A DNA stretch of 64,000 nucleotides from the sequence record MN850630.1; one strand, given 5' to 3'. Below the pieces are notes generated by a model. It worked only from the letters and a program-made list of their open reading frames with translations, searched no databases and had not been told where the DNA came from. The position numbers were made by a program, and so were the translations under genes. This DNA is from Escherichia phage naam. Shown here piece by piece: positions 26,089-30,487 of this stretch (the stretch's first letter is position 1; each line of letters opens with the position of its first letter).

Positions 26089-26106
26089 TTTTTTAACTGA
26101 ATTATC

Positions 26107-26132
26107 AAGGGGCTTAGGCCCCTTTCTTTTTG
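26107..26132 (+). terminator. rho-independent terminator
   Basis: AAGGGGC-ttag-GCCCCTT + TCTTTTTG. Confidence 0.65.
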
Positions 26133-26135
26133 TCT

Positions 26136-28580
26136 GCTCTTCCCCCTACCATAAACGGCCCTACCTGGCAAGTGGAATAATTGACGAGCCATCAATCCTA
26201 CACACTGTACAAACATACATGTAAAATAGCTATTGCATAACCTTTCATTGTGTGGTAGCGGTGCTATTTTTTACCAGTTTTCCTTCCAAAATTGCACGTA
26301 ATGCCGCTATTGCACAAATTTTAACCTGATGCACATCTCCAATATCTTGTCAACAACTAAAAATCTTTATAAGTCATACACTTACACAGCATCGAAAGCG
26401 TGTTCTACGCGAAAAATCGAGTATAACTATAGCCGCCAGATCTCAGAATTCACGTACGCACGCCATTCTATAGCCTGCAAAGTATTTATTCCAACCACAG
26501 AATAACGGAATAGTCAATACCTGCATAAAATAATTATTAGTGTAAACTGCATAACATAAATCAGCTCAGGTGTCAACATTTTTCGTAAACAGTCCGAAAT
26601 TATCACGATGAGTTATCATAAACAGAGAAATCTTTAGTCGTCTAATGTTTACTGTACATTACTATACTGACTGGAATCATTAGATGACTAAGAGAAAGAT
26701 AAGAAATAATTAATAATGTAATTGTTTTACCTGTAACAATAAGGCAACTATGCAAACGAATGGCATGGCGCGACGGAGTCGCGACATAATATAAAAGCAG
26801 TAACCATCACCCCCGTGATAGTTTGTCTGCAATCTATTAATCAGATCATAGTTGCCTTGTATTCAGTTAATCATGACATGATAAGCAAGGCAACTATAGA
26901 TCTTCTAATAGTTGCCCTGCTTTTATATTATGTCATAGAAACACCCGAAGGGGTGACCAAAGGTCACCTGGCATAGCCAGTGAAAGATTATTAACTTGCT
27001 AATAGTTATCATGCAAACGAATGGCATGGCTGATTATCGGTGTGTAAACAGTCAATCATGTAAATGGTTAGCATGTGAACAATCAGAAATGTAAACAATC
27101 CAGTGTGTAAACTAATAGGTGTGTAAAAGTGTCATGTTGTGTCAGTTAGGTCACATTATGTCAGACAAGTTTTTCTCCTCTTTGTCAAGTGCTGCATGAA
27201 AAATTTACAAGCTTGTATGGTAGCATTTTTGCGGCCCTGTTTACATTCAGTGTTGTATGTATAATCCTTGTTGTGTGGGCGTTTAGACGTCTGGACGGTC
27301 AGAAGTCTGCAGGTTAATATCTAATCTATCGGCTGCTAACTATATCCCACACAAATAGTAAGAAATATAATTGTTATGTGCGTAAACAGTAACCCATGTT
27401 ATCAATCCCTGTATGTATCGCCAGTGGTGCGCATAATGGGTATTATGTTAAATTGCCCGTAATGATAACAGTTCTCACAATGATAGGTATTCTCATTCAC
27501 CCCCACAAGATAGGTTGCAAATGTTGTGCCACTGTGTGAACGGCCTGGCCTATTAATTTGCCTCACTGCCTTGATATTTGAGAATTATTATAAGAATGAG
27601 AAGTATTCCCATTTCGTCCGCCTGGCAGCACTCCTGTAGGTCAGGTCAAAATCGTGGTAGAACTAGACCTATCCGGATATTTCTGGCTGACTCTTCAGGT
27701 CTGTGTGGGAAAAGCCAACCTCTCCGGCGGGGCAGGGGGAGGTCAATTAAAAAATTTACGTGGTGTATGAAGCGCTCTTCAGGTAAGGCAGGTATTATGG
27801 GATGAAACCCGCTTCAGGCAATGATATTTGTGGGTGTGATATTTGCTGGAAGGCCAGATATGACGGGACTCCCGGCGGGGCAGGGGTAGTACAGACAGGG
27901 AAAATATGGGGATGTAGTTGGGGAAATTGATCAGACAGGTAGAGTATGGAATATGTTACAGGTATGTTAAATATGGAGGTTGAATATCTGTAGGATTTGT
28001 GTGTAAAATCAAAGACTTAAGGGGTGTTGTGGTATTTTCTATAAATAATTCAAGTTTAATAGGCAATATTTGTCTCTATCCGCTTTGTGTGGTAAACAGA
28101 TTCAGATGAGATTGGTTTACAAGTGTATACATAATATACAAATTAAAGATACAAGAAACCCCCCTCCCCCTTCGGCTACCATTCACCTTTTCCTCTGACT
28201 GGTACTTAAACACTTATTCAGACTCTTCAGGTTATCACCCATATATCATATGGCAGTGACTGGTGTCCTCCGGCCCCTCTTTCGTCACCCGTCCGCTTCG
28301 CCATGCTAATGCCATAGCTAATGGTTCGGTTGTTCACCCTGTTCACTCAGGTGTATCTCTATACCCCTTCAAACCGAAGAGAACAGAAAACCCGAATTAC
28401 TCGGTAAAAGAAAAGAGAAGAACTTAATTTTATCAGGATAGGCAAGAATGTCAAGGCATGACTGCTCACTAAACAAGCAAACAGTCATGTGTGGGAGGTA
28501 AGTGATTGTGGTGGTAGGAAATTTAGTTGAAAGATGTGTTATAGGTGCTTCCAGCACTTTAGCCGGGCAGCTAATTGTGT
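26136..28580. other. repeat-dense non-coding region between convergent gene blocks
   Basis: No convincing ORF; direct and inverted repeats, GTGTAAAC-like motif cluster, GC-rich direct repeats. Confidence 0.6.
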
Positions 28581-28581
28581 G

Positions 28582-28797
28582 TCAGTCCAGCGGTTCATCC
28601 TCTACTTCACTGAAATCAATGTTCATGGTCTCTTCCCAACCATCGATCTCAGCACAAGAGTGGAGTTCTTTAGGGTTTACTCCCAAAGCCTCAGCAACAG
28701 AGTCTATATTTAACACCTCTGGCAGGTATGATTCATCGAATTCAAGGTAAATCAGGCCACGAGTGTTGTCAGCTCCACCAAATATCTCTATCTTCAT
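28582..28797 (-). CDS. small acidic protein
   Basis: 71 aa, GAGGAG RBS. Confidence 0.5.
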   Translation of the reverse strand: MKIEIFGGADNTRGLIYLEFDESYLPEVLNIDSVAEALGVNPKELHSCAEIDGWEETMNIDFSEVEDEPLD

Positions 28798-30181: not shown

Positions 30182-30487
30182 TTATTCTACAGAGCGTTTG
30201 AACAGAATGTCTGCCTCAGACATGTGCTCAACCTCTTCTTCGATTTTAGCGCGACGTTTTTCAGCCTCATAGCGGATATCGAACTCGGTAGCCACCAGAG
30301 ATTTGATGAATTTAGGAGAATACAGGTGATCCTGCTTCTCAACGAGAATGATATCCTTAATGGCATCTTTCAGATCTTTAATCTGAAGTTGGAGTTCCAC
30401 CAGTTCTTCGATTGTTTTGCGAAGGCGATCACGCTCTGCAGTGTCAGAAGGAAGAGAGGTGAACAGTTCAACTTTAGATTTAGCCAT
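30182..30487 (-). CDS. hypothetical coiled-coil protein
   Basis: 101 aa, AAGGAGA RBS. Confidence 0.55.
   Translation of the reverse strand: MAKSKVELFTSLPSDTAERDRLRKTIEELVELQLQIKDLKDAIKDIILVEKQDHLYSPKFIKSLVATEFDIRYEAEKRRAKIEEEVEHMSEADILFKRSVE

Follow-up and report, generated by a model that had tools for sequence, protein, structure and literature searches.

The gene-free gap at positions 26136-28580 of a 64,000-nucleotide stretch of Escherichia phage naam (MN850630.1; the whole 64-kb stretch is hereafter called the window) is very probably the genome-terminus, or concatemer-junction, region of this phage, with positions 27164-27622 corresponding to the single assembled copy of a 459-bp direct terminal repeat (DTR). 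The gap comprises 2.4 kb onto which a plus-strand and a minus-strand gene block converge, and a first-pass annotation of the letters had listed an origin or terminus, a packaging site, and non-coding RNA genes among its possible contents. The suggestion of a packaging site with physical genome ends is supported by homology to the mapped terminal repeats of relatives, which places the boundaries at 27164 and 27622.

As judged from sequence similarity, the window is part of the genome of a Vequintavirus: the 121 phage records that match region 26100-28600, at 88-97% identity, are without exception rV5-like Vequintavirus myoviruses with genomes of ~137 kb. The gap is the locus of the grey box labelled 'non-coding', devoid of open reading frames (ORFs), that the rV5 genome paper draws between ORFs 163 and 164 (Kropinski et al. 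2013, PMC3606486), a study in which the genome ends were not mapped.

Probable terminal repeat and genome ends

The phage Gotham displays 459-bp terminal repeats with the same start sequence in all virions, that is, fixed ends (PMC7471380), and its record annotates a repeat_region at 1-459 and 136567-137025, the two copies being identical. The Gotham DTR aligns ungapped to 27164-27622 over 459/459 positions at 98% identity. EdH4 and HdK5 were reported to carry 458-bp terminal redundancies (PMC6563267), and the records of Gotham, HdK5, and EdH4 all contain identical 458-459-bp copies at both ends. Furthermore, the records of Gotham, HdK5, EdH4, ECP2303, YN3, Pr121LW, Aya, bov10K2, and bov22_2 start or end exactly at positions equivalent to 27164 or 27622, amounting to at least nine independent records, from several laboratories, with coincident termini. 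The interior of the repeat is 92-98% conserved, and conservation shifts abruptly at both of its edges.

The same arrangement is observed outside the genus. In KPP-1 (Mydovirus), a 514-bp repeat of the T7 type was mapped by coverage and PhageTerm (PMC9862379), and it lies within a gap of ~1.8 kb, low in coding content, on which gene blocks converge; in PBES 02 (Certrevirus), PhageTerm delineated a 443-bp repeat at positions 200-642 (PMC5557969), located within a ~1.75-kb gene-free gap between converging blocks that runs across the record ends. All three Vequintavirinae genera examined thus display a gene-free zone of 1.75-2.4 kb between converging blocks and a DTR of 443-514 bp. The earlier remark that such a zone is unusual for a compact phage genome therefore needs qualifying, given that the gap is a fixed feature of these three genera and was already drawn as 'non-coding' for rV5. 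By eye, the left part of the PBES 02 gap comprises an unannotated ORF of ~80 amino acids (MNRLFKINLPLW...) followed by a good terminator, so that its truly non-coding part may be nearer 1.4 kb.

The repeat of the window is best compared with the short DTRs of other Vequintavirinae (Gotham, EdH4/HdK5, KPP-1, and PBES 02), with which it shares the boundaries, the location in a converging-block gap, and the terminus boxes described below, the difference being that the window holds one copy, as in a circularised assembly. The DTR core is already known biology of this group. The published sources give the repeat length only, with no account of flanking arrays, conserved boxes, or a nearly invariant element.

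Three points weigh against this assignment of the termini. First, the window holds a single repeat copy, and the ends of phage naam are placed by homology. Second, the Shigella phage CM1 contains an exact 523-bp tandem duplication that has the same right boundary and a left start 64 nt further left; the left cut may vary among strains, or the record may be misassembled, or the duplication may be real. Third, the boxes and arrays are tied to terminase recognition by inference; the terminase genes lie outside the window. A cos site, or a headful pac site, in place of a fixed terminal repeat is scarcely credible: rV5-like genomes are described in some announcements as circular or permuted, and many records open at arbitrary points, but the identical copies at both ends of Gotham, HdK5, and EdH4, the fixed ends reported for Gotham, and the PhageTerm classification of KPP-1 and PBES 02 as short-DTR phages all argue for the DTR.

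Two duplications in the database records deserve description in their own right. The one in CM1 spans positions equivalent to 27100-27622 of the window and starts inside the repeat array that adjoins the left terminus. Phage I29 displays an exact 546-bp duplication with a 48-bp spacer, equivalent to 27406-27948 and off the DTR boundaries; it may be real or an assembly error.

Terminus boxes and flanking arrays

Comparison of the window with KPP-1 and PBES 02 highlights three conserved boxes (Table 1), and for the terminus-proximal ones the alignment to the independently mapped ends holds to within 1 nt in the three genera; the DTR boundaries are supported by this agreement. The boxes comprise (i) a left-terminus box, in which TGTCAAG begins 19-20 nt inside the left end in the window, KPP-1, and PBES 02, the letters being TTCTCCTCTTTGTCAAG, TTCTCTCTCCTTGTCAAG, and TTCACTCTTCGTGTCAAG, respectively; (ii) an internal block, which is the only stretch of the DTR that BLAST finds across the three genera, with 85-93% identity over 27-28 nt, E values down to 1e-7, and the cross-genus consensus GTGCG(C/T)ATAA..G(G/T)GT(A/T)TTATGTTAAAT; and (iii) a right-terminus box, TGGCAGCA, of which an identical 8-mer follows right after the mapped terminus in PBES 02, with TAGCACCG in the same place in KPP-1. 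The internal block is a candidate late-type promoter or terminase-bound site. The cross-genus agreement of the boxes also points to conserved cut and recognition signals. Beyond the right-terminus box, position 27633 is an indel hotspot at which relatives carry insertions of 15-25 nt.

The left terminus is flanked by a hypervariable array built from two kinds of units. GTAAAC or GTGAAC units occur at 27044, 27060, 27075, 27091, 27107, and 27123 with a period of 15-16 bp, and their copy number, six in the window, ranges from 1 to 8 among relatives. They are followed by GTCA units at 27131, 27141, 27150, and 27160 with a period of 9-10 bp, the last of which ends at the predicted cut TGTCA/GACAAG (marked by the slash). 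Tandem Repeats Finder recovered only a trivial 12-nt repeat because the arrays are too degenerate for it. The density of repeats in the gap noted in the first-pass annotation is real: the 8-mer GTAAACAG is found five times in the gap and once in the other 61.5 kb, and ACATAATA four times and not at all, respectively. As a cross-genus motif, GTAAACAG was discarded: KPP-1 and PBES 02 both carry it close to the repeat, but in KPP-1 its background frequency is too high. The predicted cut sites 27163/27164 and 27622/27623 fall at or near the centres of the interrupted palindromes TGTC-A-GACA and GCC-T-GGC, and in PBES 02 the sequence GCC(T)/GGCA is common to both ends. No description of the terminus boxes, the cut-site arrays, or the dispensable inverted-repeat module of the left arm was found in the searchable literature.

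Table 1. Features of the gap and its immediate flanks, in window coordinates
Feature	Position	Strand	Basis or remark
Last CDS (coding sequence) of plus-strand block, 139 aa	25669-26088	+	Intact in 13/15 relatives
Intrinsic terminator closing plus-strand block	26107-26134	+	7-bp G+C-rich stem (26107-26124) and T-run
Left arm, A+T-rich, non-coding, more variable than flanking genes	26136-26749		Pairwise diversity 7-13%
Inverted-repeat module	26750-27030		Bracketed by perfect 20-nt direct repeats ATGCAAACGAATGGCATGGC (26750-26769, 27011-27030)
Hypervariable repeat array adjoining left terminus	27031-27163	+	Diversity 41-54%
Probable direct terminal repeat, single assembled copy, 459 bp	27164-27622		Homology to Gotham repeat
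Left-terminus box, pyrimidine tract then TGTCAAG	27171-27189	+	Conserved in three genera
Conserved block inside repeat, GTGCGCATAATGGGTATTATGTTAAAT	27427-27453	+	BLAST across three genera
Right-terminus box TGGCAGCA, directly outside repeat	27623-27632	+	Cross-genus match
Two copies of CCGGCGGGGCAGGGG(G/T)AG, 148 nt apart, G-runs in G-rich arm	27724-27889	+	Repeat family D7
A+T-rich low-stability stretch past G-run	28000-28158		GTAAAC sites 28092 (+), 28115 (-)
Nearly invariant non-coding element, ~370 bp	28158-28530	-	Diversity 0-3%
C6TC5 on plus strand; G5AG6 then UUU in minus-strand RNA	28159-28170	-	Sharp left edge of element
Weak hairpin and U-run ~16 nt past predicted start	28392-28404	-	Candidate attenuator or very-short-RNA terminator
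Predicted sigma-70 promoter TTGACA-N16-TGaTAAAAT (extended -10)	28454-28427	-	11/12 consensus positions (promoter scan)
Last conserved CDS of minus-strand block, 71 aa	28582-28797	-	Intact in 15/15 relatives; 30 synonymous vs 16 non-synonymous changes

Proposed packaging mechanism

The features above can be accommodated in a T7-type model, as outlined in the PhageTerm paper, in which the repeat is duplicated by extension from staggered nicks (PMC5557969). Replication would generate concatemers with one repeat copy between genome units. The terminase would then recognise fixed sites and introduce two staggered nicks, at TGTCA/GACAAG (27163/27164) and CGCC/TGGCAGCA (27622/27623), and extension of the 3' ends with strand displacement would duplicate the repeat, leaving one at each end of every packaged genome. 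The three cross-genus boxes, together with the helically phased GTCA and GTAAAC arrays, are likely recognition or positioning signals for the terminase, and the two arms of ~1 kb may serve to separate the cut sites from the converging gene blocks and to harbour accessory cis elements.

The arrangement resembles that of T7 and T3 in having a short exact repeat, fixed ends, and duplication by extension from staggered nicks (PMC5557969). It differs from T7 in that the repeat is three times longer, the phage is a ~137-kb myovirus without a phage RNA polymerase, there is no sequence similarity, and the ends are found at the convergence of two gene blocks rather than where the early genes begin. Short-repeat arrays also adjoin the terminal repeat of T7, which has a leftward host-type promoter near its left end.

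The position of the repeat has practical consequences. The deposited rV5-like genomes mostly begin at arbitrary positions, and in some of them spurious genes are annotated over the true ends; placing the ends at 27164 and 27622 would permit correct linearisation and annotation. The DTR would also show where packaging signals must stay when these therapeutic-candidate phages are engineered, and the cross-genus terminus boxes offer a concrete, testable definition of Vequintavirinae terminase cut sites.

Predicted early promoter and nearly invariant element

The right arm of the gap contains a second conserved feature, a nearly invariant non-coding element with a predicted promoter inside it. The promoter lies downstream of the last minus-strand CDS and faces the gap. 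The strict pattern TTGACA-N16-18-TAnnnT has 19 matches in the 64 kb, and all 19 read in the same direction as the genes around them: the nine that precede 26.1 kb are on the plus strand, the ten beyond 28.4 kb on the minus strand. Many of them have counterparts in the rV5 list of early promoters, in which P074 has the same -10 as the promoter at 28454. The strict pattern thus predicts the early promoters of this phage with high specificity, and the promoter at 28454 belongs, by its sequence, to the early-promoter class. It is missing from the table of the rV5 map, which covers the same locus, because promoters were sought there only upstream of genes (PMC3606486). The block ends given by the first-pass annotation are affected accordingly in one respect: the terminator of the plus-strand block stands, whereas minus-strand transcription probably continues past 28582, given the early-class promoter facing the gap.

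Conservation was assessed on an alignment of the window with 15 relatives, which is also the basis of the ORF intactness and substitution figures given below; the diversity comparison covered 4.5 kb (24.6-29.1 kb of the window). Pairwise diversity is 0-3% over 28150-28550, compared with 3-7% for the gene next to it and 7-13% for the left arm, so that no other non-coding DNA in these 4.5 kb is as strongly conserved as the element and its promoter. Identity of at least 99% over the 367-bp element is reached by 54/117 records, against 1/117 for an equal-length neighbouring coding stretch. The metagenome contig CYGL01000294.1 (L036), a divergent relative, discloses the limits of this module, with conservation starting exactly at the C6TC5 run and stopping ~75 nt upstream of the -35, and the sequence on both sides replaced or diverged. 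The element appears from this comparison to be exchanged as a cassette. Next to the G-run, ~85 bp of L036 (compared with 28076-28160) are replaced by unrelated A+T-rich sequence, and a 15-bp insertion is found at 28576, as in phage ECP26.

The promoter and the C6TC5 run delimit a predicted minus-strand RNA of ~260 nt, from ~28420 to ~28160. No description of the element and its promoter was found in the searchable literature, and the pair may represent either a non-coding RNA gene or an origin primed by transcription. Likewise, the literature yielded no usable Vequintavirus transcriptomics, and a Septuagintavirus paper contains no relevant data.

That the element is a stand-alone non-coding RNA gene, transcribed by the host RNA polymerase from a start at ~28420 into a purine-rich, trans-acting regulator or sponge of ~260 nt, is a serious possibility, albeit somewhat short of an even chance; such a gene would add to the role of the gap as terminal-repeat region and not replace it. 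The promoter, with its 11/12 consensus positions, its extended -10, and the specificity of the pattern to which it conforms (19/19 matches co-oriented with genes), argues for transcription; conservation of the element greatly exceeds that of the neighbouring gene, and none of its ORFs has a coding signature. The edges of conservation in L036 are those expected for a discrete module of promoter and transcript. On the other hand, no Rfam family matches the element, and its folding is not significantly more stable than that of shuffled sequence (z = -1.17 for the minus strand and -0.05 for the plus strand). Consensus folding of 10 variants revealed compensatory changes in 0/86 predicted pairs; covariation is absent because the sequence hardly varies. 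Moreover, the presumed 3' end displays a G-run and U-run in place of a canonical hairpin terminator, and the hairpin at 28404-28392 is weak. The idea of non-coding RNA genes in the gap thus keeps its plausibility, on account of the canonical promoter and the sharply bounded, nearly invariant element, but gains no help from Rfam, folding, or covariation.

A possible transcription-primed origin in the right arm

The same features might instead constitute a replication origin, in which host RNA polymerase starting from the promoter at 28454 would stall, or an R-loop would form, at G5AG6UUU, and the 3' end of the transcript would prime leading-strand synthesis into the A+T-rich stretch at 28000-28158; among known systems it comes nearest to the T7 primary origin, T4 oriF/oriG, ColE1 RNA II, and mitochondrial CSB 2, all of which resemble the arm in the combination of promoter, interrupted G-run, U-run, and A+T-rich DNA. 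We consider this unlikely, although several observations speak for it. A strong promoter faces the A+T-rich, low-stability stretch, a candidate unwinding element; this is a weak indication, as the 64 kb contain 53 low-stability segments, of which 10 lie within the gap or beside it. Split G/C runs, defined as at least four C (or G), 0-2 other bases, and at least four C (or G), number only three in the 64 kb, at 27729, 27877, and 28159, all of them in the right arm, and the sole split run in the KPP-1 sample (20 kb), as in the PBES 02 sample (7 kb), is likewise located within the gene-free gap. Among the proteins of the phage are a family A DNA polymerase and a DnaB-like helicase, the latter a T7 gp4-like primase-helicase by the annotation of the rV5 paper, and rV5 was reported to encode a Pif1-like helicase (PMC3606486).

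A biochemical precedent is provided by CSB 2, in which G5-6AG7-8 and a T-tract end transcription and form an R-loop primer, also with T7 RNA polymerase (PMC3488243, PMC5027508). However, tracts of 8-11 guanines give almost no extra termination with the mitochondrial polymerase, and the G5AG6 run of the window, followed by UUU ~250 nt downstream of the promoter, contains 11 guanines, just below the effective length. The 8-mer GTAAACAG is enriched 5 to 1, but over a span of 1.5 kb. Further points count against an origin: (i) the A+T-rich stretch is not conserved in L036; (ii) candidate CAGG..TATGG 'iterons' are degenerate and irregular, with spacings of 40 and ~27 nt that are out of helical phase, and were dropped; (iii) relaxed DnaA boxes are not enriched, with 2 in the gap against 11 in the window; and (iv) the turn of the GC skew at ~28 kb, set aside as a sign of an origin, mirrors only the change of gene orientation. 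Skew turns were likewise found to merely track gene-orientation changes in rV5, and the origin was not located by skew analysis (PMC3606486).

A more specific version, by analogy with the mitochondrial system, is that the element is an origin of a kind undescribed for bacteriophages, in which the transcript would end at the CSB 2-like G5AG6UUU and an R-loop/G-quadruplex hybrid would prime replication. It would use a T7- or mitochondria-like machinery (the DnaB-like helicase, the family A polymerase, and the Pif1-like helicase reported for rV5) at ~540 bp from the genome end, and the split G/C run that recurs in the gaps of the three Vequintavirinae genera would form the conserved core. The element differs from CSB 2 in its shorter G-tract and in that E. 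coli RNA polymerase would transcribe it; the likeness is one of resemblance. We regard this version as quite improbable, and our estimates for it and for an origin in general are kept low because tracts of 8-11 guanines barely terminated the mitochondrial enzyme. Should the element turn out to be an origin or a regulatory RNA, a gap in the rV5 paper, which could not locate the origin, would be filled.

Coding potential of the gap

The gap is truly non-coding for protein, in agreement with the first-pass annotation, which had reported no convincing ORF. The longest ORF comprises at most 75 amino acids, none of the gap ORFs displays an excess of synonymous changes among the 15 relatives, and no family match was obtained for three ORFs searched against Pfam or nine against PHROGs. 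The ORF at 27578-27805, dismissed as a gene from the outset, is intact in only 1/15 relatives and straddles both the edge of the terminal repeat and the indel hotspot. A missed small protein-coding gene hidden in the gap is accordingly highly unlikely, even though some records carry 1-16 small 'hypothetical proteins' there. The best candidate is the ORF at 28263-28427, which is open in 15/15 relatives; it sits in nearly invariant DNA, begins with GTG, has no ribosome-binding site, and displays 1 synonymous against 4 non-synonymous changes, compared with 30/16 and 61/15 in the flanking genes. All remaining gap ORFs are broken in several relatives, and the indels of the gap are not multiples of three.

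Searches for structured RNAs were similarly negative: a tRNA/tmRNA (transfer and transfer-messenger RNA) scan found none, and no Rfam family reached the gathering score in the 64 kb. At E ≤ 1 over the region, the best Rfam matches were His_leader, at 26.5 bits (cutoff 49), and a plant microRNA model, both taken as chance; the His_leader match, over alternative hairpins at 26881-27011, was rejected on this account. The annotations of rV5, LL12, DrSchubert, phita32, and navn leave the gap empty. Its being an assembly artefact, a concern raised with the first description, is ruled out by comparison with relatives, because the gap is colinear in ~100 independent genomes among the 121 matching records.

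Left arm and inverted-repeat module

In the left arm, the ORFs are broken in relatives, and a duplex-stability profile locates the least stable stretch of the gap at 26641-26761. The adjacent inverted-repeat module comprises (i) four ATAGTTGCC boxes in alternating orientation at 26743, 26848, 26889, and 26908; (ii) a perfect 18-bp inverted repeat, 26783-26800 and 26917-26934; and (iii) two minus-strand sites with a hairpin and T-run, at 26823-26802 and 26955-26942. The core of the module, 26735-26935, is nearly invariant in 14/15 relatives; there are small indels at 26878 and within 26937-26984. In phage FV3, precisely the stretch between the direct repeats is missing, the alignment jumping from 26769 to the repeat array, and the module is dispensable on this evidence.

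A candidate binder of the repeated boxes of the gap is a 101-amino-acid protein encoded on the minus strand at 30182-30487, which matches PHROG 639, 'transcriptional regulator'. It is at least 99% identical in 114/224 records, and homologues are found throughout Vequintavirinae at 42-60% identity.

Distribution and neighbouring genes

The region is confined to the genus in the collections searched: sensitive blastn against phages returned no homologues beyond Vequintavirus, just the 121 records, and none was present in 5,426 E. coli genomes. Exact-pattern scans gave 1 contig in IMG/VR; 15 matches in metagenomes, of which 4 are real relatives and the remainder chance matches to a G+C-rich 20-mer; and 7 matches in bacterial genomes, all 7 by chance. 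Nineteen records deposited as 'Campylobacter phage' (MG0656xx; host C. jejuni) share 92-97% identity with E. coli Vequintaviruses over the region, and from this similarity they look mislabelled or derived from contaminating coliphages.

At the left border of the gap, the intrinsic terminator is the rV5 terminator t164 (Table S4, PMC3606486). The 139-amino-acid gene that precedes it is missing in phages Alma and FV3 and intact in the 13 other relatives, a distribution that marks it as an accessory gene at the edge of the putative terminus region.

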